Below, one piece after another: positions 10,634 through 31,629 of a stretch of 32,000 nucleotides of DNA (the stretch's first letter is position 1; the number at the start of each line of letters is the position of its first letter). Both the position numbers and the translations under genes were made by a program. The stretch is from Nitrososphaerota archaeon (GTDB lineage Archaea; Thermoproteota; Nitrososphaeria; Nitrososphaerales; UBA57), in NCBI GenBank assembly GCA_016871995.1, contig VHBL01000003.1, forward strand, positions 30,001 through 62,000, given 5' to 3'. A model generated the notes under the pieces. The model ran no database searches. It was not told where the DNA came from and saw only the letters and a program-made list of their open reading frames with translations.

Positions 10634-11461
10634 CTATGCTTCGCTGATTTCAGTTCGCGCCTCCCAGAGTACTGGGAAGAACCTTTTTGTCAGTGATGTT
10701 TGAAGATAAGAAACTCCAGATATGTTGAAGGCATAAGGTCCCACAACGTCCTTGACAATTTCAGAACCTGTTCCCTGCTTCCTGCCTATTACGCGCTCCA
10801 CCATTGCTATATGATGGGTTCTCCAGAGCCAGAAATTCTTATCATATTCCATTAACACTTCAGCAAGCTCTTCAACTTCTGGATACTTTTTGCCAGAAAA
10901 GAGCCTTACGAGGGCCTTAAGCTCCTTCTTGTAGAGTTTTCTCTTAGAGTCAGCGTTAATATCGAATTTATAGCGTTCAAGAACTTCTCTAAAACCATCC
11001 CACAATGAAGGGGACTCGAACCGTTTCAGCAGTTGCTCATAATCAGATTCGTCATCTTCATGCATCTTTAGGAATTTCTCATCCTTTTGACCAGAAACGA
11101 ATTCCAATTCTCTGAACTGCAAAGATTGAAAGCCACTAGCAGGTCTGAGCAGAGTACGGAACTTCAAGAAGTCTTTTGGCCTTATCGTTTCCAATACTGT
11201 GATTTGCTGAATAAGGACCTTCTGAACTTCCACGACCCTTCGTATCAGCCTAGTAGCTTCAGGTACATCTCCTGCCAGCATGTGCGAAATAGCAGATTCG
11301 AGTTCATTGAGCATCAGTTTGAACCATAATTCGTATGTCTGGTGGGCAATTATGAACAGAACTTCGTCTTGCTGCCTCGGCTTCGAAATTAGCTTCTGCA
11401 GACCAAGCAGGTGATCTATATGCAGATATCCTTTGTAGGAGAGAGGCTTCTTTGCTGACAA
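10634..11461 (-). CDS. kynA: tryptophan 2,3-dioxygenase (heme-dependent, bacterial TDO type)
   Basis: YLHIDHLLGLQ, the distal-His motif IIAHQTYELWFKLML, SGFQSLQFRELEF, the proximal-His region WRTHHIAMVERVIGRKQGTGS, and FPVLW. Confidence 0.85.
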   Translation of the reverse strand: MSAKKPLSYKGYLHIDHLLGLQKLISKPRQQDEVLFIIAHQTYELWFKLMLNELESAISHMLAGDVPEATRLIRRVVEVQKVLIQQITVLETIRPKDFLKFRTLLRPASGFQSLQFRELEFVSGQKDEKFLKMHEDDESDYEQLLKRFESPSLWDGFREVLERYKFDINADSKRKLYKKELKALVRLFSGKKYPEVEELAEVLMEYDKNFWLWRTHHIAMVERVIGRKQGTGSEIVKDVVGPYAFNISGVSYLQTSLTKRFFPVLWEARTEISEA

Positions 11462-11472
11462 TTTTTGCTCTT

Positions 11473-12840
11473 TTACTTGTTGACCCAGGGGTAAAGCTCT
11501 TTTAATCCATTAAGAGCCTTCTTTATTGCCTTAACATCGGCATCATTCTTCTCCATATGTCCCTCTTTATATTCCCTGTAAGCCTCTAAATCTAGCAGTC
11601 CATGTCCGCAAAGGTTGAACAGAATGACTTTCTTTTCACCTGTCTGCTTGCACTTCTTTGCTTCGTCGATAACGCCTTTTATCGCGTGAGCAGTTTCTGG
11701 AGCGGCTACTATGCCTTCAGTACTTGCAAAGAAAGCCGCAGCGTCAAATATCTCCGTCTGGTTGTATGCTACGACATCGATCTGCTTTTCATGGTACAAT
11801 AAGCTCATTGATGGTGCAGCCCCGTGTACTCTTAACCCTCCAGTATGGATTGGTGGAGGTACAAAATTATGACCTATGGTGTACATTCTGAAGAGTGGGC
11901 TAGTTCTCATGACGTCCGAATGATCATACAGATATTCGCCTTTAGTAAACCTTGGTGCTGCGGTCGATTCTACCCCGAGGAACCGAACATCCTTTGGAGC
12001 TCTCTTGCTGATCTTGTCATAGTAATAGGGCCAGAATATGCCAGAGAAGTTGCTCCCTCCTCCCACACAGCCTACTACAATATCGGGGTAGTCGCCGTAA
12101 GGTTCAAACTGTTTCTGCGCTTCCAATCCGATCAAAGTTTGACTTGCAAGAACGAAGTTCATTATGCTCCCTACAGCATTTCTTGCCTTTTCATCACGCA
12201 TGACATCCTCTATAGCCTCGCTTTTGGCTATGCTCATAGATCCTGGGCCGTCAGGATCGTCTTGCAGAACATTCTTTCCAACAGAAGTGTTTGTGCTAGG
12301 GCTAGCGAAGATTTGCGCACCCCATGCCTCCGCTAGGTCTTTGCGGTAGGGCTTCTGATCGAAAGCCGCTCTTGCCATATAGATAGTGCATTTTACTCCG
12401 AATAACTTGCAGCCAAATGCAAGTGCCGTGCCCCACTGTCCAGCAGTAGTGCTGGTAACTAATCTTTCAATCCCTTCCTTCGCTGCGTAATATGCCTGAG
12501 CAACTGCAGCATTTGCCTTATGCGATCCTGGGGGACTTACGGATTCATTTTTGTAATAGATTCTTGCAGGCGTGTTTAGAGCTCTTTCAAGCCTTCTCGC
12601 TCTAACAAATGGCGTAGGCCTCCAAATCGAGTATATCTGCCTCAGCTCTTCGGGGATCTGGATGAACCGCTCGTTCGAGTATTCGTGTCTTGCAAGCTCT
12701 CTAATGAAAAGCCTATGCAGGATGGCTTTGTCTGCGACCTGCCTTGTCTTTGGATCAATTACAGGCGGAAGTTTCTTGGGTAAATCGGGAACTATGTTGT
12801 ACCACTGTGCTGGTATTGACTCTAATGCAGTAGCTAGCAT
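11473..12840 (-). CDS. trpB2: tryptophan synthase beta chain-like PLP enzyme, long TrpB2 type
   Basis: 455 aa with the TrpB2-type N-terminal extension. PLP-lysine motif PPGSHKANAAVAQAYYA, plus GCVGGGSNFSG. No trpA is nearby. Confidence 0.85.
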   Translation of the reverse strand: MLATALESIPAQWYNIVPDLPKKLPPVIDPKTRQVADKAILHRLFIRELARHEYSNERFIQIPEELRQIYSIWRPTPFVRARRLERALNTPARIYYKNESVSPPGSHKANAAVAQAYYAAKEGIERLVTSTTAGQWGTALAFGCKLFGVKCTIYMARAAFDQKPYRKDLAEAWGAQIFASPSTNTSVGKNVLQDDPDGPGSMSIAKSEAIEDVMRDEKARNAVGSIMNFVLASQTLIGLEAQKQFEPYGDYPDIVVGCVGGGSNFSGIFWPYYYDKISKRAPKDVRFLGVESTAAPRFTKGEYLYDHSDVMRTSPLFRMYTIGHNFVPPPIHTGGLRVHGAAPSMSLLYHEKQIDVVAYNQTEIFDAAAFFASTEGIVAAPETAHAIKGVIDEAKKCKQTGEKKVILFNLCGHGLLDLEAYREYKEGHMEKNDADVKAIKKALNGLKELYPWVNK

Positions 12841-12898: not shown

Positions 12899-14938
12899 TT
12901 ACTGTTGAAGTATCATTCGCAGCTTTTCAGGATCAGATGTTGGAAGATCGCAGGTAAAGTTCTTGCAGACATATGCGGTAGTTTCTCCCTCCAACTGGAT
13001 CCTGTCTTTCAGCAAAGGTATCATTTCAGAATAATCCTTCCCTGCAGGCTGAAGAGCTACTATGATATCTGGCCTGTAAGTTTCCGATATTATCCGAAGC
13101 ATCCTTTTTGTAATTTCTTCACCCAAACTACCAGATATAGCAACTTCTTTTGGCGGATTCAAAAGATAATCAAGTGCTATTAGCCAGTTAGTCAATCCTG
13201 TAGGATAGTTTTCCATCTGTGTACTTACCGATCTTAGAGCTTTCTCTGTAGATTTTGCAAACTTTGTATCTCCCGTATATGCGAACAGTTTCAGCATGAT
13301 CTGAGCCGCCGCAGACCCCCCAGAAGGGAGAGCCGAATCGAAGGAACTCTTGGGTCTTGCAATTAACTGCTCATGGTCGTCTGATGTGTCGTAATATCCT
13401 CCATCGTTCTTGTCTTCAAAATGATCGATTATCATGTTCGCCATCTTTTTTGCTTCTGCTAGCCATCTTGGGTTAAATGTGCTCTGATACAGTTCGATTA
13501 ACCCATCAGCCAAGAAAGCATAATCTTCCAAATATCCGTTGATCTTTACAGTTCCATCCTTCCATACATGCAATAACCTTCCCTCTCTCTCCATGTTGCC
13601 CAGAATGAATTCTGCATTATTTTCTGCTGCATTTAGGTAATCTTCCCTGCCCAGAACTCTTGCAGCCTCACTCATCCCCGATAGCATCAACCCATTCCAC
13701 GATGCAAGGACCTTGTCGTCCCTTCCAGGTTTTATGCGCTTGTTCCTTTCAGCAAGAAGTTTCTTTCTGCACTCTGTCATTGTCTCTTCGAGTTTCTCTA
13801 CAGAACTCTTCAGCATTGATGCTACTCCGGAAGGCTCTGTTTGAATGTTCAGGATGTTCTTCCCTTCAAAGTTACCCTCCGCTGTAACTCCGTAGTATGC
13901 GCAGAAACTTTCAGCATCAGTTCCAAGAATTCTCTCGATCTCTTGTTTTGTCCAGACGTAGAACTTGCCCTCTTCCCCTTCGCTGTCTGCATCCTGAGTA
14001 GAATAGAACCCTCCATTCGCATCTGTCATCTCCCTTAACACATAGTCAATAGTTTCTTCTACGATCTTTCTGCTGATGGGGTTCTTGTTTATCTGATAAT
14101 CGTGAAGGTAGACTCTGGACAGAAGGGCATTGTCGTAAAGCATCTTTTCGAAATGGGGAACTAGCCATCTGCTGTCAACCGAATAGCGGTGAAAACCTCC
14201 CCCAAGATGATCGTAAACTCCTCCTTGGGCCATTTTCAATAGTGTAAATTCGACCATCTTGTTGGCTTGGGCAAAGCCCTGCCTTCTTCCTATTCTGATC
14301 AGCAACTCCAACGCCGTCGGTTGGGGAAATTTAGGTGCCCTTCCAAAACCACCATTTATTCTATCAAAACTGCTGTCTAACTGTAAAAATGCGACTTCGA
14401 TTGGAAGGTTATTCAGTTCTGCTTTTTCAACAGCTATCTTTTCGTTGAGCCTTTTGTGAAGCTGCTCTGCATCTTTCATAACTTCTTGCTTTCTTGCCTT
14501 GTAAGCTTCGCTTATTGCAGCTAATACTCTTTTGAACGATGGCAGTCCATGGCCCTCATCTGGAGGGAAATACGTACCTCCGAAGAAAGGTTTCCCATCC
14601 GGAGTAAGAAAAACTGTCATAGGCCAGCCACCAGAACCTGTCAGAGCCTGAACGGCTTCCATGTAGACCGTATCCAGATCAGGTCTTTCCTCTCTGTCTA
14701 CCTTTATACTGACAAAATTGTCATTCATTATCTTTGCACTCTCTTCATCTTCAAAAGATTCCTTCTCCATGACGTGACACCAATGGCAAGCAGAATACCC
14801 TATGCTGAGCAGAATCGGCTTATCCTCTTTTCTGGCCCTGGCAAAGGCCTCCTCACCCCAAGGATACCAGTCTACAGGGTTATGCGCATGCTGAAGCAAA
14901 TACGGCGAGGTTTCTTTTGCAAGACGATTAGCATGCAA
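12899..14938 (-). CDS. thioredoxin-domain protein, DUF255/YyaL (SSP411-like) family with an (alpha/alpha)6-barrel C-domain
   Basis: [13 protein letters not shown]...[16 protein letters not shown] at the N-terminus, then GGFHRYSVD and DNALL motifs typical of the family. 679 aa. Confidence 0.85.
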
Positions 14939-17701: not shown

Positions 17702-17847
17702 AAGACGTCTTCTGGAGAACCATTATATAATTTTTCATAATGGTCTTCCAACCTATAATCAATTTCCGTTGCGTGAAAGTTCAGCAACTGACGAATCTTG
17801 TCCCAATTATCGGCACGGTTATATGGTCGAAGGATACATGCGCGATA

Positions 17848-20178
17848 ATGAAACAACAGATTACTCCGTTGAGTCTGATTGTGGCAATTCTTCTGCTGGT
17901 TTCATCGCTGGCAACAATGTCACCACTAACACCCACACCGGTTTCTGTTGCGTACGGACAGGCCTCCGGAGTGGCAGGTGCCAACTGGGAATATGTCAAC
18001 TCCCAGCAAGTTGGTGGGAGCTTTAACCCCCAGACCCAGATTACAAAGGACAACATCCAGTATTTGGAGACAAAATGGATCTACCCCTATGTCAGGCCCC
18101 CTGTACCTCAGACGATAGGAAATGGCTATGGTTCTGGTGCAGCCCCCCTAGTGGTCGATGGTGTAGTGTACATTGCAATGAATGATAGACGAATTTTGGC
18201 ACTTGATGCTACGACTGGAAGGCTTATGTGGAACAACACATACGGAACCTCCTTCGATTCAGGCGCGCAATTAGCTAAGTATCCATGGCTATCAAGAGCA
18301 GGAGCTCACGTTCACTCAATGAACTTTTACAGAGAGAAAAACTGGCTCATTACGAGTAGCATAGGTTCATGTGAATCATACGCCGTGGATGCAAAAACAG
18401 GAAAGACCGCATGGGTTCTAACAACTGAGCAGATATGTGGGACAACGGCTGAGTTTGGAGAGCCAGCCAAGGGGATTGTGGGTTCCCTTGGGAATCAAGG
18501 TTTCATGTCTGGAGCGGGCTCCCACCCTCCTAAATTACTTGGAAACATCCTGTTCTACCCTGTTCCTGGTGGGAGTGGTTCAGGAGGAAGATCGTTTGTT
18601 ACAGCATTTGACATGAGCGATCCTGCAAACCCCAAGAGACTATACAGAACATTTACCCAGCCTCCAGCTCAAGGAGATCCTGAATGGGCGATCAAACAAT
18701 GTACAGAAGCAAATGGTAATGGCTGGTATTTTGAATATCCAAGGTACCTTGAAGGGATAAACCATCCAGCGAGGGACAGAGAACCAACGTACCTAGCAAC
18801 AAAATGCACTGACGTGAGTCCAGATGTTGTAAGGAACGATGGGATGGATCTAGTACCAGGATCTCCAACCTATGGAAAGATGCACACAGCAACCAATCAT
18901 GGCTCGGCCGTATGGGGCAACTATCCACTCGACGTTGAAACTGGGATAGTGATTCTTGGATGGGGTGATCAAGGGCCTTATCCTAACCTGACGCATAGAT
19001 ATGGGCCAGGTCTACATGGTAGCGGCTTCACTGCGCATGACGTTAGAACGGGTAAGCTCGTATGGTGGTTCAACGCGATTCCGCATGACCTCTGGGACTT
19101 TGACTGTGCTTGGGGGGGCATCCTAGGTAAAACATCTGCAGGACAGAAGATCTACATAAAAGGTTGCAAGAGTGGACAGGTCTGGGGCCTTGATGCAACA
19201 ACGGGCAAACCTGTCTGGGTATTCGACGCTCCGACGATTATCAGAAATACGGACATAAACTATGGAGTTGACAAGAACAACAACCCGAGGAGCCCTGATG
19301 CCTGTTGCAGGATGACGAAGGAACATATGGGTAAACCATGGCCTAACTATCCCAGCAAGGAGAAGATGTTCACAATCTGCTACACGCATTGCCTTGAATC
19401 CGATATAGCTTCTGATGGAAAGTATGTATACGCAGCTACGCATAGCGAGCCGAGGGTCTTAACCGTAACAAATGTGAGAGGCTTTGGCAACCAGGGTTCG
19501 GCCGAAAGACTTTACAATGTAGCCGAGAAGAAATATGCAGCTGTAGCCGGGAGATACACGGAAGCGGACATAAGGGGGCTGACATACACGGTAATCTACG
19601 CATTTGACATAAGTACAGGAAAGGAGGCGTGGAGAACTAGAATCGATGGTGTACCATTCAGAGGAGGTCTAACTGTGTCTGGCGGAGTTGTCATGGCATA
19701 TGCCACTGATGGAAATCTAAAGTTCTTTGATGCAGGAACAGGCAAAATGATTTCCGAAAGATTCTTCGGGGTACCTGTAAATGTTCAACCTGTGATAGGT
19801 GCGACAAAGGAAGGAAAGATGCGTGTCTTTATGCATGTCGGAGGTGGTGGAGGGATTACCCTCAATAATGCATTACCTATCGATGGTACGCTCGTAGCAT
19901 TCGGCCTGCCTGATAAACTACCTGAACCTGTAGTCAAAGAAATCATAAAGGAAGTTCCAAAGGAGGTAGTCAAAGAAGTGGTCAAAGAAGTGGTCAAAGA
20001 AGTGGTCAAAGAAGTGGTCAAAGAAGTACCTAAGGAGGTCATAAAGGAAGTACCTAAGGAGGTAGTCAGGGAAGTGACAGTTGAAACAATTAGTCCAGCA
20101 TCATACGCTGTTATCGGTATAGGGATCGTGCTAATAGTCATATCAGGGATACTCTTCAGCAGAAGGAAGAAAGCGTAA
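17848..20178 (+). CDS. PQQ-dependent-dehydrogenase-like 8-bladed beta-propeller protein with signal peptide, repeat stalk and C-terminal membrane anchor
   Basis: I prefer the ATG at 17848 (MKQQITPLSLIVAILLLVSSLA, signal-like) over track start 17740. Quinoprotein hallmarks are QITKDNIQYLETKW, AAPLVVDGVVYIAMNDRRILALDATTGRLMW and PHDLWDFD. The C-terminus has 13 x (V-x-K-E) and then the TM helix AVIGIGIVLIVISGILFSRRKKA. Confidence 0.8.
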   Translation: MKQQITPLSLIVAILLLVSSLATMSPLTPTPVSVAYGQASGVAGANWEYVNSQQVGGSFNPQTQITKDNIQYLETKWIYPYVRPPVPQTIGNGYGSGAAPLVVDGVVYIAMNDRRILALDATTGRLMWNNTYGTSFDSGAQLAKYPWLSRAGAHVHSMNFYREKNWLITSSIGSCESYAVDAKTGKTAWVLTTEQICGTTAEFGEPAKGIVGSLGNQGFMSGAGSHPPKLLGNILFYPVPGGSGSGGRSFVTAFDMSDPANPKRLYRTFTQPPAQGDPEWAIKQCTEANGNGWYFEYPRYLEGINHPARDREPTYLATKCTDVSPDVVRNDGMDLVPGSPTYGKMHTATNHGSAVWGNYPLDVETGIVILGWGDQGPYPNLTHRYGPGLHGSGFTAHDVRTGKLVWWFNAIPHDLWDFDCAWGGILGKTSAGQKIYIKGCKSGQVWGLDATTGKPVWVFDAPTIIRNTDINYGVDKNNNPRSPDACCRMTKEHMGKPWPNYPSKEKMFTICYTHCLESDIASDGKYVYAATHSEPRVLTVTNVRGFGNQGSAERLYNVAEKKYAAVAGRYTEADIRGLTYTVIYAFDISTGKEAWRTRIDGVPFRGGLTVSGGVVMAYATDGNLKFFDAGTGKMISERFFGVPVNVQPVIGATKEGKMRVFMHVGGGGGITLNNALPIDGTLVAFGLPDKLPEPVVKEIIKEVPKEVVKEVVKEVVKEVVKEVVKEVPKEVIKEVPKEVVREVTVETISPASYAVIGIGIVLIVISGILFSRRKKA
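19930..20085 (+). repeat. 13 tandem 12-nt coding repeats (VVKE/IIKE/VPKE...), five consecutive near-identical units
   Basis: gtagtcaaagaa, then gtggtcaaagaa x4, flanked by degenerate units. In frame with the PQQ-like CDS, encoding VVKEIIKEVPKEVVKEVVKEVVKEVVKEVVKEVPKEVIKEVPKEVVREVTVE. Confidence 0.9.
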
Positions 20179-22957: not shown

Positions 22958-23356
22958 GTGCCTCACTTGTTTAGAAAATTCTTGCTCGGGAGGACCGATA
23001 AGGAGGATCCTAGAGGAGCAACTTTCAAGGCTACTCTCAATAATAGTGATTATGCATTTGTCACAATTAGAAAAGGAGCATTAAGAGGAGGACACTATCA
23101 TGACATCGAAACAACTCAGATTATTGTATATGGAAAGATAAAGTTTCAATTCGTTGACCCGCGGACCAGAAAACAATCAGAGACTATAGGTCTTCCAATG
23201 GAGATCATCCAGATACCTGCAGGCATAGCCCATATTGCCGAGGGTCTGGAAGACTCGATGTTCATCGAACCTGCTAAGGTTGGAAAAACCATCGAATACG
23301 AACCTCAACGAAAAAGAATTAGAGACATGCTTGAACGTTCGAAAACGTTGAGATAA
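22958..23356 (+). CDS. cupin-fold protein (sugar-ketoisomerase / polysaccharide-biosynthesis cupin-like)
   Basis: GALRGGHYH...IQIPAGIAHIAEG is a two-motif cupin signature resembling WxcM/FdtA/CapF-type cupins. GTG start. Confidence 0.6.
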   Translation: MPHLFRKFLLGRTDKEDPRGATFKATLNNSDYAFVTIRKGALRGGHYHDIETTQIIVYGKIKFQFVDPRTRKQSETIGLPMEIIQIPAGIAHIAEGLEDSMFIEPAKVGKTIEYEPQRKRIRDMLERSKTLR

Positions 23357-25457: not shown

Positions 25458-26360
25458 CTATTTGGCATTAGCCAGCTCTGCAACTGTGGAAATGTTGTTC
25501 TTCAAATCTTCGTCGCTGTAGCTATGCCTCTTCTTGTGGGATTCGATGATAAGATCTGGCATCTTCTGATACCTGAGCACGTCTTTGAGAATACTCTTCA
25601 AAGGCACTCTTCCATATCCAACAAGCATGTGCTGATCTTCTGAACCGTCGTTGTCATTGACGTGCATCTCAAATACCCTTCCCGCTATATTATCTATCAA
25701 TTTGCGCTGATAATTTACATCATTTAGTTTCGTCTGGCAGTAGTATACATGACCAGAATTCAAGATCACGCCAATCTTTTTCGGAAGCACAGCAAAATCT
25801 CTCGGGAGAGCGAAAAGGTACCCCCTCTCAGGTCTGTAGTTAAAGTTCTCGATACTAAGTTGGACATCCTTGGCAGCATAATCAAGCAGTTCTTCAATAC
25901 TCCTGAGTGAGTTTGCATATGCAATTTTCAGGGGGATAAGATCAGAGGGCGTGACTGGGGAGAATTCCTCCTCCTGAGTGACGACATCTGTAGCGTATCC
26001 AGCATGAAATGAAAGCACCTTCGCACCTATATCCCTAGCAAAATCAATGCTCCTCTTAAGAGCTTCAACACTATTCTTCCTAGTTTCTTCTATTGAAGAT
26101 GCCAGATTGATATAAAAGTCTCGCGAAGGTAGCCATATGCTCTGGTGAATACTGTATTTAATTCTGTATGAGTTCTTTAGATTAAGGGCTCCCCTGACAA
26201 CTTCCTTGTATTCCGCTTTTGGCTCTGCAGCACCTATCTGGACAAATGGAGGGGATCCAGCCTCCTCGAATATTTCTACGATTTTGTGTATTTTTGTAAG
26301 TATTGGTTCTCCCGCATAGCCGTAGAAGATAGTTGAAACCCCGATCATATATTTGGACAA
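25458..26360 (-). CDS. sugar phosphate isomerase/epimerase, xylose-isomerase-like TIM barrel
   Basis: VLSFHAGY...LSIENF...GVILNSGHVY...EMHVNDNDG matches the conserved metal-ligand pattern (H, E, H, D/E) of AP-endonuclease-2/xylose-isomerase-like TIM barrels. Confidence 0.75.
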   Translation of the reverse strand: MSKYMIGVSTIFYGYAGEPILTKIHKIVEIFEEAGSPPFVQIGAAEPKAEYKEVVRGALNLKNSYRIKYSIHQSIWLPSRDFYINLASSIEETRKNSVEALKRSIDFARDIGAKVLSFHAGYATDVVTQEEEFSPVTPSDLIPLKIAYANSLRSIEELLDYAAKDVQLSIENFNYRPERGYLFALPRDFAVLPKKIGVILNSGHVYYCQTKLNDVNYQRKLIDNIAGRVFEMHVNDNDGSEDQHMLVGYGRVPLKSILKDVLRYQKMPDLIIESHKKRHSYSDEDLKNNISTVAELANAK

Positions 26361-26417: not shown

Positions 26418-27371
26418 ATGGTCAAAATCATCGCAGAGCTCTGCCAGAACCATAAGGGCGATATTGGCACCCTAAAGAAGATGGTATGGGAGGCTGCTGA
26501 AAATGGTGCAACTTACGCGAAAATACAGACAATCTTTGCAGATGACTTGACTAGAAGGGAGAGGTTTGAGGAAGGTACAATAGAGGGAGATGTTGTGAAA
26601 GCTATCAAAAGGCCCTATGAATCAGAATATGCTAGACTAAAGCCGATGGACCTTGACAGAAAGGCTCATGAAATTTTCCTAAAGGAATGCCAAGCTGCTG
26701 GGATAAGACCTCTGACTACAATCTTTGCAAGGGCAAGAATTCCATTTGTGCAAGAGTTGGGCTTCAAGGAAGTCAAAGTTGCTAGCTATGATTGTGCAAG
26801 TTTCCCCATGATACATGAGTTAAAGGAAAGATTCAAACATCTTTACATTTCTACTGGTGCAACTTACGATAACGAAATAGAAAAGACGACAAGGATTCTT
26901 TCTGGGCACAGTTTCTCATTTCTTCACTGCATAACCATTTACCCCACACCTTTGAATCAGCTTAACTTGGCAAGGATGGAGTATTTGAGAAAGTTTGCCA
27001 AAGAAGTCGGTTTTAGCGACCATACTCTTTTCGAGAGGGATGGTTTGAAGGCTTCTATAGCAGCAATATATTATGGTGCCCAAGTCATCGAAAGGCACTT
27101 TACCATACTTGACAAAACGATAACAAAAGACGGCCCAGTTTCTATAAATCCAACGCAGCTAAAAGAACTGGTTGAAACCTCTAAGATGAGCAGGGGCGAA
27201 CTGGAGGGCTATACGCGCAAAAACCTACCAGAGTTCGAGCAGATGATAGGTTTGACATCACGCACGCTTTCTCACGAAGAGCTATTGAACAGGGATTATT
27301 ATAGAGGAAGGTTTGCCAGCAAGGTAAACGGACAAATAATTTACAACTGGGAGGATAGGACGGTCTTTTGA
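26418..27371 (+). CDS. NeuB-family PEP-condensing sugar-acid synthase (sialic/nonulosonic acid synthase-like)
   Basis: IIAELCQNHKGDIGTLKKMVWEAAENGATYAKIQ aligns with NeuB IAEIGxNHNGxxxxAxxMIxxAxxxGADAVKFQ. Also present are ISTGATYDNEIE, LHCITIYPTP, VGFSDHT and GAQVIERHFTILDK. It is 317 aa, and the C-terminal SAF-like region looks short or degenerate. Confidence 0.8.
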   Translation: MVKIIAELCQNHKGDIGTLKKMVWEAAENGATYAKIQTIFADDLTRRERFEEGTIEGDVVKAIKRPYESEYARLKPMDLDRKAHEIFLKECQAAGIRPLTTIFARARIPFVQELGFKEVKVASYDCASFPMIHELKERFKHLYISTGATYDNEIEKTTRILSGHSFSFLHCITIYPTPLNQLNLARMEYLRKFAKEVGFSDHTLFERDGLKASIAAIYYGAQVIERHFTILDKTITKDGPVSINPTQLKELVETSKMSRGELEGYTRKNLPEFEQMIGLTSRTLSHEELLNRDYYRGRFASKVNGQIIYNWEDRTVF

Positions 27372-29368
27372 AAAAACGTGTTCTTGCAATAATACCAGCA
27401 AGGGGAGGCTCCAAATCTATTCCAAAGAAAAACATCAAGGAGATTGCTGGTAAGCCTCTCGTAGCCTTCAGTATAGCCGAAGCATTAAGGGCAAAGACAC
27501 TTTCGAGGGTCATAGTTTCTTCAGACGATGAAGAAATTCTTCAGATAGCAAGAAAATATGGGGCGGAAACTCCATTTATCCGTCCTAAGCGACTTGCAAC
27601 GGACGATGCGCTTGCAATAGACGTTATGGTTCATGCCATAAAAGAGTGTGAAAGGCAGGAAGGCCAAAGATATGATTATGCTCTAATGTTGCAACCTACT
27701 ACACCAATGCGCACGGCAGAAGATATAGATGAAGCACTAGAGAAACTTGTTTCAAGCAACGCAGATTCTGTGATAAGCGTAGTTAACGTTGGAGCCATTC
27801 ACCCACACAGGATGAAGAAGATAGTCAAGGATCAGCTGATAGACTACGCAGATGAAGGTACTGAAAACATGCCGAGGCAGAAGCTTCCTCCTATGTACAT
27901 AAGGAATGGTGCAATTTATGCTGCGAAAAGAGACAGCATAGTCAAATCAAAATCGTTCAAGGGTAAGAAATCCCTAGCATACGTGATGTCTGAAGATAGG
28001 TCTGTAAACATTGACAGTAGCCTTGATTGGGTGTTGGCAGAAACTCTGATGCAGAAGATGGACTGGAGTCATGTGAAACCGAGGAATTCTGTACAGATGC
28101 CTTGGAGTTCATGGTATGGTAACGAACTTCTTGACATAGAGCTTCCTTCAAATTGGAATGTATCAGTTGCAGCAATGAGTGATGCAGTGGAACTCTCCGA
28201 CAATGAAATCAAAAAAGCTCTGGCAAGTCCAATTGCGAGTCCTCGTCTCTCCGAACTTGCAAAGGGCAAGAAAACTGTGTGTATAGCAGTTGACGACCTG
28301 ACAAAGCCTACCGAAACTTTCAGAATACTGCCACCAGTTATTGATGAATTAAGGAAAGGCGGGATAAAGGACAATGACATTTACTTTCTTACCAGCATTG
28401 GCACGCATAGACCTCTAACAAGGGATGACATGGTAAAGAAGCTCGGGAGTGAAACTGTTGGAAAGTTTAGGGTTTACAACCATAACGCTTACCAGAACAA
28501 TGTATTGATAGGCAAAACGAGTTTTGGTACACCTGTAGAAATAGACAGGATATTTTTTGAAGCTGACCTGAAGATAGGAATCGGCACTTTGATGCCGCAT
28601 CCCTATGCTGGTTTTAGCGGCGGAGGCAAGATAGTCATGCCAGGGCTCGCTAGCATAGATTCTGTTGACATCAATCATAAACCTGTTAACGTTTCTTTGC
28701 AGGGGAGGATAGGGCAGGTTGCCGGAAACTCAAGAAGGGGAGATATAGAAGAGGCAGCAAGAATGGCTGGGTTGCACTTCATTGTAAACACACTTTCAAA
28801 TTCAAGAGGCAAGACATGTGCCGCTTTCGCTGGTAGTCCAAAGGAAGCCTTCGCAGAAGCTTCTAGACATGCCTTGAAGGTCTATTCTACAGATGTTCCT
28901 TATGGTATTGATGTTGGGATATTCAACGCTTTCCCGAGAGATACGTGGTTTCTTCTTTCGCTAAATGCGCTTAACGTTTGGGCCTCAAGGGATCCTGACA
29001 AAGAGATCGTAAGGAGAGGAGGCACGATTGTAATTATCAATGCTTGCCCAGAGGGACTAGGGGAGCACGGGCTTGTTGGAAAAGGGATGCGACAGCACGT
29101 GAGGAGGGACAAGCACGGTACATTCAAAGGGCCGCTTGAGGGGAGAAGAGTGATATTCTTCTCACCAAACGTTCATCCATCTCACGTCTATGACCACTAT
29201 CCAGAAGGGGTCTTACTCTTCAATAAATGGGATGATGTTTTAGATGAAATGAAGAAAGAATATGGTAGTGGAACTATGGCCGTCGTTTTTCCATGCGCTC
29301 CATTGCAGATGGATAAGCATGTCATAGTGCAGGAGAATTTACTGGACGACAGAATACTTGTTTCATAG
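27368..29368 (+). CDS. fusion protein: CMP-sugar-acid (acylneuraminate-type) cytidylyltransferase domain plus a LarA/DUF2088 nickel-pincer racemase/epimerase-like domain
   Basis: N-terminal domain: VLAIIPARGGSKSIPKKN, MLQPTTPMR, YIRNGAIY. C-terminal domain: PIASPRLSEL, CIAVDDLTKP, SIGTHRPLT, LMPHPYAGFSGGGKIVMPGLASIDSVDINH. It is a single ORF with no internal stop. The TTG start overlaps the NeuB-like stop (TTGA). Confidence 0.85.
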   Translation: MKKRVLAIIPARGGSKSIPKKNIKEIAGKPLVAFSIAEALRAKTLSRVIVSSDDEEILQIARKYGAETPFIRPKRLATDDALAIDVMVHAIKECERQEGQRYDYALMLQPTTPMRTAEDIDEALEKLVSSNADSVISVVNVGAIHPHRMKKIVKDQLIDYADEGTENMPRQKLPPMYIRNGAIYAAKRDSIVKSKSFKGKKSLAYVMSEDRSVNIDSSLDWVLAETLMQKMDWSHVKPRNSVQMPWSSWYGNELLDIELPSNWNVSVAAMSDAVELSDNEIKKALASPIASPRLSELAKGKKTVCIAVDDLTKPTETFRILPPVIDELRKGGIKDNDIYFLTSIGTHRPLTRDDMVKKLGSETVGKFRVYNHNAYQNNVLIGKTSFGTPVEIDRIFFEADLKIGIGTLMPHPYAGFSGGGKIVMPGLASIDSVDINHKPVNVSLQGRIGQVAGNSRRGDIEEAARMAGLHFIVNTLSNSRGKTCAAFAGSPKEAFAEASRHALKVYSTDVPYGIDVGIFNAFPRDTWFLLSLNALNVWASRDPDKEIVRRGGTIVIINACPEGLGEHGLVGKGMRQHVRRDKHGTFKGPLEGRRVIFFSPNVHPSHVYDHYPEGVLLFNKWDDVLDEMKKEYGSGTMAVVFPCAPLQMDKHVIVQENLLDDRILVS

Positions 29369-29389: not shown

Positions 29390-30100
29390 ATGAAGATTGT
29401 CATGCTAGCTGCAGGACGCGGAGAGAGACTCGGGCCGCTGACAGACAAGATACCCAAACCATTGATCGAAGTTGCAGGTAGGCCTATTATAGAACACATC
29501 CTCGACTTGTTGATTAAACTGCCTGATGCAAAGGTCGGGATTGTAGTCGGACATTTGGGCGATCAAATAGTAAAAAGACTTGGCTCTGAATACCGTGGCA
29601 TTAAGATATCTTATATTTTTCAGGAGCAGATACTGGGCACAGGACATGCTACCCTCCTTGCGCGTAAGTTTATTGGTTCAGACCCGTTTGTTCTATATCT
29701 AGCAGACACCTATATTGTTGATGACTTGCAAAAAATAACCAAAAATCTTACCAAAGGGAAAAGTAACAGGATAGTGGTTTCAAGAGTGAGCAAAAATACG
29801 GCACTGAACAGCGGTCAGGTCATTCTCTCTGCTGGTAAAGTTGTGGACATAGTTGAAAAACCAGTTAACCTACTTTCAGATGTCGTAGCTTCGGGTATGT
29901 ACTACTTTTATCCGCAGATTCTTCAATATTTGCAACTGCTCTCTGACGGAAAACCGCTTGAGCTTACTAATGGGATCAGAGAACTTCTGAGACATAAGAA
30001 AGTAGAAGCTGTTTGGGCGAAAGCATTTCTTGACATAGGAACTCCAGCTGGGCTGAAGGCTGCCGATGATTTTCTAAAAGGGAAGATGGTTGCAGAATAG
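29390..30100 (+). CDS. sugar-1-phosphate nucleotidyltransferase, HddC (heptose-1-P guanylyltransferase)-like
   Basis: MKIVMLAAGRGERLGPLTDKIPKPLIEVAGRPIIEHIL is the canonical NTP-transferase N-terminus. At 236 aa it is HddC-sized, and it sits with hddA/gmhA/gmhB. Nucleotide specificity cannot be read from the sequence. Confidence 0.75.
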   Translation: MKIVMLAAGRGERLGPLTDKIPKPLIEVAGRPIIEHILDLLIKLPDAKVGIVVGHLGDQIVKRLGSEYRGIKISYIFQEQILGTGHATLLARKFIGSDPFVLYLADTYIVDDLQKITKNLTKGKSNRIVVSRVSKNTALNSGQVILSAGKVVDIVEKPVNLLSDVVASGMYYFYPQILQYLQLLSDGKPLELTNGIRELLRHKKVEAVWAKAFLDIGTPAGLKAADDFLKGKMVAE

Positions 30101-31085
30101 AATTAAGGTATACGCCCCTCACAGAATAAGCTACTGTGGAGGGGGGACAGACTTTCCATCATTTTACAACCAATATGGCGGTGCCGTCATAAACTGTGCT
30201 ATCAACAGGTTTTCAAAAATCTACGCCAGACCTGAGCGCGGTTCGAATATATTTCTTGAAGCAAAAAGAGTAAACGAAACATACTCGGGAAACATGTTAG
30301 AGGTAAAGAACAAGAATAAGCTTTCCATGCCGCTGAAAGCCATTCTTGACTGGAACCAACCGGTACATATGGTAATCGAGAGCGACGTTCCACCGGGAAG
30401 CGGCCTTGGGTCATCTGGAACATTGGCAGTAAATCTGATTAACACGCTTAACTTTCTGAAAAGAGGCAGCACAATCCAGCCGAGTATTCTTGCCGAACAC
30501 GCTTATCATTTTGAGGCTTATACATTGGGAAAGGCTGTTGGCAAGCAGGATCACTATGCTGCGGCGTTAGGAGGAATGAACTTCATAGAATTTGGTGCGC
30601 AAGGAGTGAAAGTTAGCCGTTTTGCTACAGAAACTGCGATTGAACTGCAGAAAAGGTGCATACTTTTCTATCTTGGGAAGACTAGAATTGCAGACATAAT
30701 TCTGAAAAGGCAGGAAAGAAATGTGGTTCAAAGAAATGAAAGTACGATTGAAGCTTTGAAGGGGATGATAACACTTACCCGCAGAATGAAAAGGTCGATA
30801 GATAAAAGGAATTTTGGAGAAATTGGATCACTACTTGAAGACGCATGGCTGCTAAAGAAAAAGTACACTACAGGTATATCAAACAAATTCATCGACAAGG
30901 TGCATACTAGAGCACTGCGATCTGGGGCTACAGGTGCAAAGGTTACTGGAGCCGGAGGTGGCGGCCATTTCTTCGTCTATGCAGAAGCAGATAGACACAG
31001 AAAAATCATAAGGAACCTTAATGATATAGGGTGCGAACATATACCGTTCAAGGTGTGCGAGAGTGGAGCTTGGGTTGAAAAGTGA
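30090..31085 (+). CDS. hddA: GHMP-family sugar kinase, D-glycero-D-manno-heptose-7-phosphate kinase (HddA)-like
   Basis: APHRISYCGGGTDFPSFYNQYGGAVINCAI (COG2605-type N-terminus), GHMP motif PPGSGLGSSG, and GAKVTGAGGGG. TTG start overlapping the upstream gene by 11 nt. Confidence 0.8.
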   Translation: MQNRIKVYAPHRISYCGGGTDFPSFYNQYGGAVINCAINRFSKIYARPERGSNIFLEAKRVNETYSGNMLEVKNKNKLSMPLKAILDWNQPVHMVIESDVPPGSGLGSSGTLAVNLINTLNFLKRGSTIQPSILAEHAYHFEAYTLGKAVGKQDHYAAALGGMNFIEFGAQGVKVSRFATETAIELQKRCILFYLGKTRIADIILKRQERNVVQRNESTIEALKGMITLTRRMKRSIDKRNFGEIGSLLEDAWLLKKKYTTGISNKFIDKVHTRALRSGATGAKVTGAGGGGHFFVYAEADRHRKIIRNLNDIGCEHIPFKVCESGAWVEK

Positions 31086-31629
31086 AACTAAGAGGTTTCT
31101 GGTAGATTCTAAGAGTGCAATAGATTCCTTCCTAAATAATCCTGCTGTTGAACGATTTATTTCAATTCTGAAAGACGCAAGACAGCGCCGAAAAAACGTG
31201 TTTGTATTCGGTAATGGAGGAAGCTCCGCTACTGCATCGCATTTTGTGTGCGACCTTCTGAAGACATCAATTGTAAAAGGCAAGCCTAGGTTCAAAGCCT
31301 ACTCGCTTACCGATAATGTACCTGTCATGACAGCTTGGTCGAATGACGTCTCTTACAGCGATATCTTTGCAGAGCAGTTGAAGAACTTTCTTGAATCAGG
31401 CGACATAGCGATAGCCATAAGCGGGAGCGGAAACTCTCCAAACGTGCTTAGAGGAACGGAATTTGCAAAAGAAAATGGCGCAGTCACAGTTGGATTGACT
31501 GGCAACTCTGGCAAATTGGCTGGAATGGTTGATATATGTATCAAAGTACCTTCTAGTAATATCCTCCTAATAGAAGGCGCACATTCTGTCCTTTTGCACT
31601 ATGTCACAGAAGTTCTACGAGAAGCATGA
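31063..31629 (+). CDS. gmhA: SIS-domain sedoheptulose-7-phosphate isomerase (GmhA)
   Basis: VFVFGNGGSSATASHFVCDL, ISGSGNSPNV and EGAHSVLLHY. 188 aa. The start may be GTG 31063 or TTG 31075, and both overlap the hddA end. Confidence 0.85.
   Translation: MELGLKSETKRFLVDSKSAIDSFLNNPAVERFISILKDARQRRKNVFVFGNGGSSATASHFVCDLLKTSIVKGKPRFKAYSLTDNVPVMTAWSNDVSYSDIFAEQLKNFLESGDIAIAISGSGNSPNVLRGTEFAKENGAVTVGLTGNSGKLAGMVDICIKVPSSNILLIEGAHSVLLHYVTEVLREA

Follow-up and report, generated by a model that had tools for sequence, protein, structure and literature searches.

A cytidylyltransferase fused to a LarA-type nickel-pincer domain, linked to NeuB-like synthases in archaea and bacteria

In a window of 32,000 nt from a Nitrososphaerota archaeon (assembly GCA_016871995.1, contig VHBL01000003.1, positions 30,001 to 62,000 of the forward strand) we found a gene that joins a CMP-sugar-acid synthetase-type cytidylyltransferase to a complete LarA-type domain, immediately downstream of a gene for a NeuB-like synthase. 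We favour, with a probability of about 0.55, the reading that its product is a bifunctional enzyme of surface-glycan synthesis working around a NeuB-type 3-deoxy-2-ulosonic acid: the LarA half would invert a stereocentre of the sugar, and the N-terminal half would activate it with CMP. The same pair is found beside a gene for a sugar-acid synthase in numerous archaeal and bacterial genomes, which suggests an undescribed role of the nickel-pincer family in building cell-surface sugars. The first-pass annotation of this DNA knew of no described fusion to a CMP-sugar-acid synthetase; full-text literature searches likewise found no description of a cytidylyltransferase-LarA fusion.

Results

The fusion gene

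A single uninterrupted ORF of 666 aa had been claimed, and the ORF at 27368..29368 (plus strand) indeed runs without a break; its features and those of its neighbours are as follows.

25458..26360, minus strand: TIM-barrel protein resembling xylose isomerase (AP_endonuc_2), a conserved neighbour of NeuB in archaeal loci (16 of 22 loci at at least 60% identity)
26418..27371, plus strand: NeuB-like PEP-condensing synthase, 317 aa, without SAF domain (Pfam E 6e-49); conserved upstream partner
27350..27355, plus strand: Shine-Dalgarno-like GGAGGA, 5' of the TTG start (sequence inspection)
27368..29368, plus strand: fusion ORF, 666 aa, TTG start, stop codon included; database copy P0001 is 100% identical over the full length
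27368..28057, plus strand: cytidylyltransferase domain (CTP_transf_3, NeuA/PseF-like), residues 1-230
28058..28114, plus strand: conserved linker MDWSHVKPxNS..., residues 231-249 (family alignment; model pLDDT 90-95)
28115..29365, plus strand: LarA-fold domain with N- and C-terminal subdomains, residues 250-666 (profiles, AlphaFold model, Foldseek)

The Pfam match of the upstream gene bears out the earlier statement that the fusion directly follows a NeuB-like synthase. The TTG start overlaps the stop codon of that gene (TGA, 27369-27371) by 4 nt, which suggests that the two genes may be translationally coupled.

The fusion is genuine and not an assembly artefact, since the identical protein is recorded on 5-6 contigs, with three places coming from three separate samples (one ENA assembly and two Logan runs), and since 27 clusters (90% identity clustering) have the same two-domain architecture, ranging from 100% down to 47% identity.

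The cytidylyltransferase half

Residues 1 to ~230 had been assigned to a CMP-sialic-acid-synthetase-type cytidylyltransferase, and this assignment holds. Pfam CTP_transf_3 matched residues 7-185 (E 8.8e-23); the NCBIfam PseF model (TIGR03584) matched residues 6-228 with 170.1 bits, below its equivalog cut-off of 205.7. In the PDB this half matched the Vibrio cholerae CMP-NeuAc synthetase 6ifd (E 2e-34, 38% identical), and a Foldseek search with the model gave TMt 0.85-0.89 to synthetases of CMP-NeuAc, CMP-Pse and CMP-Kdn (0.89 to both 6ifd and 9ftc).

Residue roles in the Neisseria meningitidis enzyme are known from mutagenesis, the D209A variant being inactive (PMC2901514). The N-terminal half retains most of the residues shown in this way to be important: equivalents of N. 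meningitidis R12, S15, K21, Q104, T106, R165, Q166, N175, Y179 and D211 are all kept (query R12, K21, Q109, R170, Q171, N180, Y184 and D216 correspond to R12, K21, Q104, R165, Q166, N175, Y179 and D211). In the K142 column the MAFFT alignment has Arg; phmmer aligns a Lys there. The first metal-binding Asp (D209) is absent, its position being taken by Asn214; most members of a large group of relatives, a NeuB fusion among them, have the same SVNID motif.

Gene linkage and distribution

The genes surrounding the fusion encode glycosyltransferases, NDP-sugar enzymes and an exporter. Among LarA homologues (LarAHs) at least 45% identical, a cytidylyltransferase is fused or adjacent in 36 of 47 cases (25 of the 30 with at least 3 kb of flank on both sides), and a NeuB or KdsA-like synthase lies within 10 kb in 36 of 47 (26 of the same 30). 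Below 45% identity, neither a cytidylyltransferase link nor a NeuB/KdsA-like synthase was seen (0 of 92 for each).

The fusion is not confined to archaea: it was found in MAGs of Thaumarchaeota, Anaerolineae and Acidobacteriota, and fusion or pair is present in several bacterial phyla. The two halves are split into adjacent genes, cytidylyltransferase first and LarAH second, in loci L008, L025 (SAR324) and L036; in an Omnitrophota locus (L022) they stand in frame with one stop codon between them. One marine cluster alone represents 215 member sequences.

In archaeal loci the fused domain is the only cytidylyltransferase beside NeuB. Several bacterial loci have a second one (a GT2 fusion) per single synthase, so the fused domain need not be the sole activator there. 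One could speculate that the fused domain acts on the cofactor instead, attaching CMP to the NPN phosphate and giving the LarA domain a dinucleotide pincer cofactor. LarC does transiently cytidylylate a cofactor precursor with CTP, there is a published report of a nickel-pincer adenine dinucleotide cofactor, and some bacterial loci contain one cytidylyltransferase domain more than synthases. We nevertheless regard this as highly improbable, given that the N-terminal half falls squarely within a large NeuA-like clade, with its 38% identity to the V. cholerae enzyme, that it keeps the equivalent of the sugar-carboxylate-binding Arg165 along with those of Q104, N175 and Y179, that its close relatives include a fusion to NeuB itself (P0241), and that no other cytidylyltransferase accompanies NeuB in the archaeal loci.

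The LarA half: fold and cofactor residues

Residues ~240-666 had been aligned by eye with LarA/DUF2088, and the match proved to cover the entire LarA fold. Pfam Lar_N (PF09861 / DUF2088) matched residues 250-440 (E 1.3e-54; 185 bits, the cut-off being 23.3). The NCBIfam malate-racemase model LarAH6 matched residues 250-567 with 250 bits. All curated equivalog cut-offs were missed: 250 bits against 500 for LarAH6, 217 against 462 for LarAH5, 203 against 460 for LarA and 188 against 540 for LarAH10. PDB matches were Mar2 (6d6z, E 2e-48) and LarA (5huq, E 5e-33). The AlphaFold model of the fusion protein (pLDDT 93.9, pTM 0.88) has a complete two-domain LarA fold, with Foldseek TMt 0.83-0.85 to the LarA crystal structures 9eia, 8ezf and 8ezh over ~430 columns.

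The quoted motifs and their coordinates were all correct on re-reading the sequence, and a phmmer alignment to Lactobacillus plantarum LarA upheld each proposed residue equivalence:

28295..28306, plus strand: D310-L-T-K313, aligned with LarA D72 (NPN ribose) and R75 (NPN phosphate / substrate carboxylate)
28406..28408, plus strand: His347, aligned with catalytic His108; 53 of 53 in the clade
28598..28630, plus strand: His411 (28598-28600), Ser417 and Lys421 (28628-28630), aligned with catalytic His174, Ser180 and NPN-tethering Lys184
28676..28678, plus strand: His437, aligned with Ni-ligand His200

Asp310, His347, His411, Lys421 and His437 are invariant in the 27 fused and 33 unfused relatives; Lys421 and His437 are each invariant in all 120 aligned sequences, and both catalytic His residues (H347 and H411) are kept in 53 of 53 members of the clade. 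The position of Arg75 holds Lys in 18 fusions, the query among them, and Arg in nine; Lys is also found there in the NPN-loaded LarA homologue LarA_Sp (PMC12611868). Judged by the alignment and the TM-scores, the Lys and His residues would be arranged round the cofactor site as in LarA, and the LarA half most likely carries a Lys-tethered NPN.

It could be argued that this half is a structural, oligomerisation or regulatory domain without cofactor. Extra C-terminal domains on CMP-sialate synthetases have a precedent, the non-catalytic C-terminal domain of the vertebrate CMP-sialic acid synthetase. Also, and as a point against the reading that we favour, no lar maturation genes were seen nearby: a tblastn search with a verified LarE sequence found no larE in the window (32 kb) or up to 10 kb from any of 140 related loci (1.73 Mb), and motif scans of the same DNA, run without a positive control, found no larB or larC. 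In favour of an NPN enzyme, published thaumarchaeal genomes have larB-, larC- and larE-type genes (PMC8397731 supplement). Against a domain without cofactor stands the invariance of D310, H347, H411, K421 and H437 in members from archaea and bacteria alike, at identities as low as 47%, split-gene versions included. A decayed domain would not keep exactly these five residues, and a purely structural, oligomerisation or regulatory part for the LarA half seems very unlikely.

The substrate pocket

In LarA, Tyr294 holds the 2-OH of the substrate, and Gln295 and Lys298 hold its carboxylate (PMC11851776). In the query these residues are replaced by Leu529, Leu530 and Asn533, the Asn being present in 27 of 27 fusions, and the alpha13-14 'PDQW' region is shortened to a smaller loop. 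The features of this region are:

28733..28738, plus strand: Arg456-Arg457; Arg456 is at the position of LarA Ile220, clade-specific, in 27 of 27 fusions; Arg457 is common to the malate racemase Mar2
28952..28981, plus strand: L529-L530-x-L532-N533 ... W538, replacing LarA Y294-Q295-x-V297-K298; clade-specific insertion with Trp538
29102..29119, plus strand: RRDKHG, residues 579-584, clade-specific basic loop in place of the LarA alpha13-14 PDQW region

The pocket signature (Y413, R456, N533, W538, R579, D581, H583 and R593) is absent from more distant LarAHs. A remodelled basic pocket specific to the clade is made up of Arg456, Asn533 and RRDKHG 579-584.

The description of this half as catalytically intact thus stands for the cofactor and acid-base set and fails for the substrate binders Tyr294, Gln295 and Lys298. 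With these three replaced, Arg75 changed to Lys and the PDQW region swapped, the site is not a canonical 2-hydroxy-acid site, and known LarA chemistry is not simply transferable to the query. A similar division applies to the proposal that epimerisation of a sugar acid is coupled to its CMP activation. Conserved synteny and split-gene pairs strongly support a functional link to NeuB and CMP activation; C2 epimerisation does not follow, because the site is non-canonical and a 3-deoxy-2-ulosonic acid lacks a hydroxyl at C2 that could be inverted.

One alternative is that the LarA half acts as a racemase or epimerase on a 2-hydroxy acid that is small or dicarboxylic, similar to malate, glycerate or lactate, and serves as glycan substituent or glycosyl acceptor. 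The fusion would then reflect only co-regulation with the CMP-sugar step, and the LarA half would not act on the sugar of the ulosonic-acid pathway. GT4 and PIG-L genes are close by in archaeal loci, a pair that resembles the enzymes making GlcN-malate for bacillithiol. The best curated matches are the malate-racemase models LarAH6 and LarAH5, though the scores fall far short of the cut-offs (250 bits where 500 are required, and 217 where 462 are), and Arg457 is shared with Mar2. A query Lys also lies near the position of a malate-racemase Lys thought to bind the second carboxylate (PMC11770544); however, remodelling of the 576-585 loop makes it uncertain which residues correspond there. Furthermore, Gln295 and Lys298, the carboxylate binders in all characterised 2-hydroxy-acid LarAs, are lost, and what persists across phyla is linkage to cytidylyltransferase and NeuB/KdsA-like genes; GT4 and PIG-L do not persist. 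We consider a small hydroxy-acid substrate unlikely.

Alternatively, NPN could oxidise the substrate transiently for a reaction other than epimerisation, such as the shift of a hydride within the sugar acid (keto/hydroxyl isomerisation along the chain), or an elimination or deoxygenation helped by oxidation. A conserved hydride-transfer set in a remodelled pocket would fit such chemistry; intermolecular hydride shuttling is an activity of NPN enzymes outside racemisation (PMC13524815), and an NCBIfam model 'NPN-dependent hydroxyacid isomerase' exists for LarAH14/15/16. On the other hand, the clade keeps both catalytic His residues, the mark of racemases and epimerases that transfer protons on two faces; in clades believed to carry out other chemistry, one of the two is missing (PMC7583248; PMC12611868). 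We therefore give a non-epimerase reaction little weight.

Discussion

Proposed function

In the reading that we prefer, that of a bifunctional epimerase and CMP-activating enzyme, the N-terminal half would be an ordinary CMP-ulosonic-acid synthetase (CTP + sugar acid -> CMP-sugar + PPi). In the LarA half, NPN on the Lys would take a hydride off a hydroxyl-bearing carbon, as in LarA; a transient ketone would form between the two histidines, and the hydride would then be put back on the opposite face, the net effect being inversion of one stereocentre of the pathway sugar. The LarA half could act on the open-chain aldose (or aldose phosphate) that NeuB consumes, on the ulosonic acid in its free form, or on the CMP ester. 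The epimeric ulosonic acid could be CMP-activated on the same polypeptide and then handed to the neighbouring glycosyltransferases. In this scheme we infer the loading with NPN, epimerisation in preference to other hydride-transfer reactions, which molecule is the substrate and which step comes first.

More tentatively, the clade may represent the first NPN enzymes acting on a carbohydrate of the nonulosonic/ulosonic pathway and not on a simple 2-hydroxy acid, doing the work normally done by NAD-dependent or hydrolysing epimerases; a stereoisomer of an ulosonic acid that is so far undescribed, perhaps an 'ulosaric' acid with two carboxylates, might then occur in the surface glycans of ammonia-oxidising archaea and of several bacterial phyla.

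To our knowledge, characterised LarA-family enzymes all racemise or epimerise free 2-hydroxy acids. If our reading is true, a fused clade tied to NeuB/KdsA-type synthases brings nickel-pincer chemistry into nucleotide-sugar and glycan biosynthesis, and one protein plus NeuB makes a concrete, expressible candidate for a new substrate class. It would also imply that ammonia-oxidising archaea need nickel and NPN for a step in making their envelope. In environmental genomics, 'LarA' genes of Thaumarchaeota were read as a sign of lactate use (PMC8397731); the fusion clade would correct this reading, though the LarA of that work may belong to another clade.

Comparison with known systems

The LarA half shares with LarA the Asp, His, His, Lys, His set (NPN binding, Ni ligation and acid-base catalysis) and the GFSGGxK motif, at 25-28% sequence identity to known LarA enzymes. 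Within the family, GntE (LarAH19/20) comes closest as a precedent for work on carbohydrates; this LarA homologue acts on a sugar acid as D-gluconate/D-mannonate 2-epimerase (PMC7583248). The centre that GntE inverts is C2 of an aldonic acid and thus of a genuine 2-hydroxy acid, whereas C2 of an ulosonic acid bears a keto group; the query gives only a marginal match to the hexonate-epimerase model (E 0.0076, 15 bits). LarA_Sp and LarA_Bw (9q3j/9q2u), which the query matches weakly (E 4e-17), are proteins of ~500 aa that form octamers and are encoded among glycolysis-type genes; they have a single catalytic His with Asn at the second position, while the query clade keeps both.

NeuA, PseF, LegF, CMP-Kdn synthetase and KdsB resemble the N-terminal half in fold (TM 0.85-0.89). 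The CMP-ulosonic acid synthetases have in common with it the P-loop Arg and Lys, the QPT, RQ and NGxxY motifs, the second metal Asp and the adjacency to NeuB; the query differs from them in the attached LarA domain of 430 aa and in the Asn at the D209 position, which many uncharacterised relatives share.

Bifunctional enzymes of sialic-acid pathways include the epimerase/kinase GNE and the bacterial NeuA synthetase/O-acetylesterase. We know of no LarA-type or nickel-dependent domain in either of these or in NeuB-cytidylyltransferase fusions. As is proposed for the query, GNE, the bacterial NeuA/O-acetylesterase and P0241 place CMP activation or another pathway step together with a sugar-modifying step on one polypeptide.

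Domain content of the fusion

Two overlapping genes of the window are central to the analysis:

26418–27371 (+), NeuB-like synthase, 317 aa
27368–29368 (+), fusion of a cytidylyltransferase (N-half) with a LarA-type domain (C-half), 666 aa

The reading frame of the fusion runs through 666 codons without interruption; its TTG start is situated 12 nt 3′ of a GGAGGA box, in a 4-nt overlap with the stop codon of the NeuB-like gene. The profile check of both halves, proposed in the first-pass annotation, gave Pfam matches to CTP_transf_3 at residues 7–185 (E = 8.8e-23) and to Lar_N at residues 250–440 (E = 1.3e-54). In NCBIfam, PseF matched residues 6–228 and four racemase models for the nickel-pincer nucleotide cofactor (NPN) matched residues ∼250–570, the scores of PseF and NPN-racemase models alike being well under the curated equivalog cut-offs. 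Among solved structures, the N-half matched CMP-NeuAc, CMP-Pse and CMP-Kdn synthetases; the C-half matched Mar2 malate racemase (E = 2e-48), LarA_Ip (2e-44) and Lactobacillus plantarum LarA, LarA_Lp (5e-33). The ORF call and these matches confirmed the earlier claim of a single uninterrupted ORF joining both domains; the motifs and coordinates quoted with it were all correct on re-reading.

The identical protein was seen on 5–6 contigs, with three of the places read from three samples, and the architecture was common to 27 clusters (clustering at 90% identity); the fusion is, therefore, no assembly artefact.

An AlphaFold2 model made with an alignment of 120 homologues had a mean pLDDT of 93.9 and pTM of 0.88, with disorder in the last seven residues only. 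In a Foldseek search against the PDB the N-half aligned to 6ifd, 9ftc, 1eyr and 9t4z with TM 0.85–0.89. The C-half aligned over ∼430 columns to complete LarA chains, with target-normalised TM of 0.83 (9eia), 0.85 (8ezf, 8ezh) and 0.80 (6c1w); since whole chains were covered, the model predicts a full-length LarA fold, extending beyond Pfam's Lar_N part.

Distribution and gene linkage

A database survey of the fusion and its neighbourhood, also suggested at first pass, was based on 140 loci from scans of one genome per species, JGI metagenomes and exact look-ups; it revealed the pair, fused or split, in several phyla and linked to NeuB/KdsA-like genes. Thaumarchaeota with the fusion were MAGs of Nitrososphaerales and Nitrosopumilales (one marine thaumarchaeal cluster has 215 member sequences); the fusion was also present in MAGs of Anaerolineae and Acidobacteriota. 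At three loci, L008, L025 (SAR324) and L036, the halves are separate adjacent genes in unchanged order. In an Omnitrophota MAG (locus L022, 2880–4868), with a match over residues 1–653, the halves are separate in-frame ORFs with one stop codon between them; possible explanations are that the gene split recently, that the sequence contains an error or that the stop is read through. With the library clustered at 50% identity, protein cluster P0005 was the sole full-length fusion among the best 150 matches listed; the fusion is a compact family.

Genes linked to LarA homologues (LarAHs), by identity group: loci with a cytidylyltransferase in the same or the adjacent gene; loci with NeuB or a KdsA-like synthase no more than 10 kb away
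≥45% identical, all loci: 36/47; 36/47
≥45% identical, at least 3 kb on both flanks: 25/30; 26/30
<45% identical: 0/92; 0/92

The <45% group includes deltaproteobacterial LarAHs (loci L048–L051, ∼33% identity), whose neighbours were read by eye as hydroxyacyl-CoA dehydratase and FAD-oxidase genes. By a classic Rosetta-stone argument, the fusion, its split counterparts and the clade-specific synteny together point to one pathway common to this LarA clade, a synthase of the NeuB/KdsA type and a CMP-ulosonate synthetase.

Some Acidobacteriota LarAHs (loci L037–L047 and L052, 34–37% identical) were located in exopolysaccharide-type clusters with no NeuB and no cytidylyltransferase. By eye, these clusters contain a GT4, a hexapeptide-repeat acyltransferase, a deacetylase-like gene and an AsnB-like amidotransferase, with a Pfam match for GT4 alone; possibly, they hold another carbohydrate-linked LarA clade.

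Neighbouring genes

The conserved core of the archaeal loci consists of a xylose-isomerase-like TIM-barrel gene, a SAF-less NeuB and the fusion, surrounded by genes for GT4 glycosyltransferases, an SDR epimerase/dehydratase, a PIG-L deacetylase and a methyltransferase; the marine lineage adds two UDP-glucose/GDP-mannose-dehydrogenase-family genes and a TagF-like transferase. Among solved structures, the TIM-barrel neighbour is most closely related to MJ1311, for which a literature search found no functional description. The NeuB-like protein of the window has no SAF domain and, in the alignment, carries Asp at the position of Neisseria meningitidis NeuB Glu134; the archaeal and eukaryotic Asp has been tied, tentatively and speculatively, to phosphorylated (aldose) substrates (PMC8208679). 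At L007 and L019 a second NeuB is accompanied by its own NeuC-type epimerase and cytidylyltransferase; the fusion-adjacent NeuB has neither.

Directly downstream of the fusion there is an NDP-heptose-type module:

29390–31629, sugar-1-P nucleotidyltransferase, HddA-like GHMP kinase and GmhA-like SIS isomerase

It goes on past the window with a GmhB-like HAD phosphatase (14259–14705 in locus L001). Its genes overlap by a few nt; their scores are far under equivalog cut-offs, which makes the predicted sugar uncertain.

Bacterial loci add a polysaccharide deacetylase, an ABC exporter and a GT2–cytidylyltransferase fusion; some have a KdsA-like synthase with GFO/MocA and shikimate-dehydrogenase-like oxidoreductases in place of NeuB. 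As the GT2 fusion recurs, cytidylyltransferase domains outnumber synthases in those clusters.

GT2–CTP_transf_3 fusions (∼460 aa) adjoining the LarAH in bacterial loci
L004, 12022–13416
L008, 3315–4688
L021, 7624–9015
L026, 7514–8902
L027, 3171–4601
L036, 6211–7608

Elsewhere in the window three further places were noted:

10637–12840 (−) and 12902–14938 (−), tryptophan 2,3-dioxygenase adjoining a PLP-dependent enzyme gene, and beside them a DUF255 thioredoxin-domain protein (679 aa) with a weak GH88-like region
17740–20178, 812-aa protein with tandem KEVV-type repeats (19930–20075; period 12/24/36 nt) followed by a terminal hydrophobic stretch; it is probably secreted, and by eye the stretch looks like a transmembrane anchor
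22958–23356, cupin-like ORF of 132 aa flanked by glmS and a pair of ABC-2 transporter genes, with sub-threshold Pfam matches only (Polysacc_synt_C, Cupin_1)

The cytidylyltransferase half

In the alignment, the N-half keeps equivalents of N. meningitidis R12, S15, K21, Q104, T106, R165, Q166, N175, Y179 and D211, several of which were found important by mutagenesis (PMC2901514); the K142 column is occupied by Arg148 according to MAFFT and by Lys150 according to phmmer. The first metal-binding Asp, D209, is replaced by Asn214; the D209A mutant of the N. meningitidis enzyme is inactive (PMC2901514). We considered Asn214 as a mark of an inactive or LarA-specific cytidylyltransferase and rejected this: SVNID is the usual motif of many standalone relatives that form a large NeuA-like clade, and it occurs in a NeuB-SAF-cytidylyltransferase fusion as well. 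It is a clade trait, neither decay nor specific to LarA partnership. It has also to be considered that this half would cytidylylate the cofactor itself, acting on the partner domain's NPN; set beside the matches to CMP-sugar-acid synthetases and the linked synthase genes, we regard this as most improbable.

Standalone cytidylyltransferases ∼50% identical to the N-half could be thought of as hidden split partners; this was unsupported in the one case examined (P0190 at L060), with no LarA gene downstream on a contig of only 1.3 kb. Other domains of this type, also ∼50% identical, are fused to a D-2-hydroxyacid dehydrogenase (P0210, 565 aa), to NeuB with SAF (P0241, 594 aa) and to a methyltransferase (P0220, 488 aa). 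In P0210 this domain is, for the second time, combined with 2-hydroxy/2-keto-acid chemistry; the 3.7-kb contig of P0210 (L059) has methyltransferases as the only other genes and gives no pathway information.

The LarA half: cofactor machinery and substrate pocket

Residues were mapped by a phmmer alignment to L. plantarum LarA (used for LarA numbering) and by a MAFFT alignment with 60 relatives.

Cofactor and acid-base residues: LarA, fusion
Asp72, D310
His108, H347
His174, H411
Lys184, K421
His200, H437

No variation was seen at these five residues across 27 fusions or across 33 close homologues that are not fused; two of the five, K421 and H437, were invariant in 120/120 sequences. From the alignments we infer that residue geometry at the cofactor site would match that of LarA. 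The invariance of the Lys, the three His and the Asp argues that the LarA half would bind NPN and perform proton-coupled hydride transfer with two-faced acid-base catalysis, i.e. epimerisation. Next to it, a scaffold domain without cofactor seems quite improbable; hydride chemistry without epimerisation, which would use the same cofactor, is considered unlikely, the acid-base set being conserved along with the cofactor residues.

Arg75 of LarA binds the phosphate of NPN as well as the carboxylate of the substrate. Its position is taken by Lys in 18 of the 27 fusions and by Arg in the other nine; LarA_Sp, purified with NPN, carries the same Lys (PMC12611868). The substrate carboxylate and 2-hydroxyl are gripped by Tyr294, Gln295 and Lys298 in LarA_Ip and LarA_Lp (PMC11851776). 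The fusion has Leu529, Leu530 and Asn533 instead (Asn in 27/27 fusions), Ile220 is replaced by Arg456 (27/27), and the α13–14 helical region with PDQW by a shorter, confidently modelled loop bearing RRDKHG (579–584). When the 120 homologues were divided at 45% identity, Y413, R456, N533, a W538 insertion, R579, D581, K582, H583, F586 and R593 appeared only in the ≥45% group; the cofactor and acid-base set, N454 and R457 were common to both.

The description ‘catalytically intact’ given at first pass thus stands for the cofactor and acid-base machinery, but not for the 2-hydroxy-acid binding mode. Judged by its residues, the LarA half looks cofactor-competent and catalytic, and its substrate pocket looks new and strongly basic. 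A small hydroxy-acid racemase providing a substituent would agree with the matches to malate racemase; with the usual grip on a 2-hydroxy acid replaced, it is a doubtful alternative.

NPN maturation genes

No larB, larC or larE (the NPN maturation genes) was found in the window or within 10 kb of the 140 loci by motif scans and LarE tblastn. The scans, which for the LarB and LarC patterns had no positive control, covered the window together with 58 loci at first and 140 later; the sole matches for LarB, LarC and LarE types were AsnB-like PP-loop proteins. L. plantarum LarE (query 100% identical to PDB 5udq) had no tblastn match in 1.73 Mb of loci.

Published thaumarchaeal genomes have larB, larC and a PP-loop/DUF111/PurE-like gene group, as well as a LarA-family gene read by the authors as lactate racemase (PMC8397731 supplement). 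NPN biosynthesis thus exists in the phylum; for this organism it is a prediction. The published LarA, reportedly 32% identical to LarA_Lp, with a 361-aa example in an annotation table and, in one MAG, with NeuA and NeuB lying on another contig (PMC8397731), probably belongs to a clade other than that of the fusion.

Proposed function

In general terms, we propose epimerisation of a pathway sugar by the NPN half and CMP activation by the other half, with a probability of roughly 0.55. Sugar-acid epimerisation had been suggested earlier by analogy with gluconate 2-epimerase; the analogy cannot be literal, since C2 of a 3-deoxy-2-ulosonic acid bears a keto group and no hydroxyl.

Four substrates, left unranked, may be considered: (a) the open-chain aldose(-phosphate) consumed by NeuB; (b) the ulosonic acid in free form, acted on at C4 or at a hydroxyl of the side chain; (c) CMP-ulosonate, whose phosphate and carboxylate could be held by the basic pocket; (d) a dicarboxylic acid derived from uronic acid. 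An α-hydroxy-aldehyde is isosteric with an α-hydroxy-acid, and option (a) would fit the loss of carboxylate binders, the lack of a NeuC/PseG-type enzyme by the linked NeuB and Asp at the Glu134 position. Option (d) would fit malate racemases as the clade's closest likeness, and dehydrogenase genes beside the marine clusters (none in this window).

Comparison with known systems

The first-pass view that no LarA–cytidylyltransferase fusion has been described agrees with full-text literature searches, which found no paper joining LarA, nickel-pincer or DUF2088 with cytidylyltransferase, NeuA/NeuB or nonulosonic acids; two surveys of the LarA superfamily leave domain fusions unmentioned. The architecture has already been noticed by automatic annotation, as seen from the names ‘nickel-dependent lactate racemase/CMP-N-acetylneuraminic acid synthetase’ (JGI) and ‘lactate racemase domain-containing protein’ (NCBI). 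What is already known are the folds and the cofactor logic; the clade and the architecture are new, and the substrate class of the LarA half is probably new as well.
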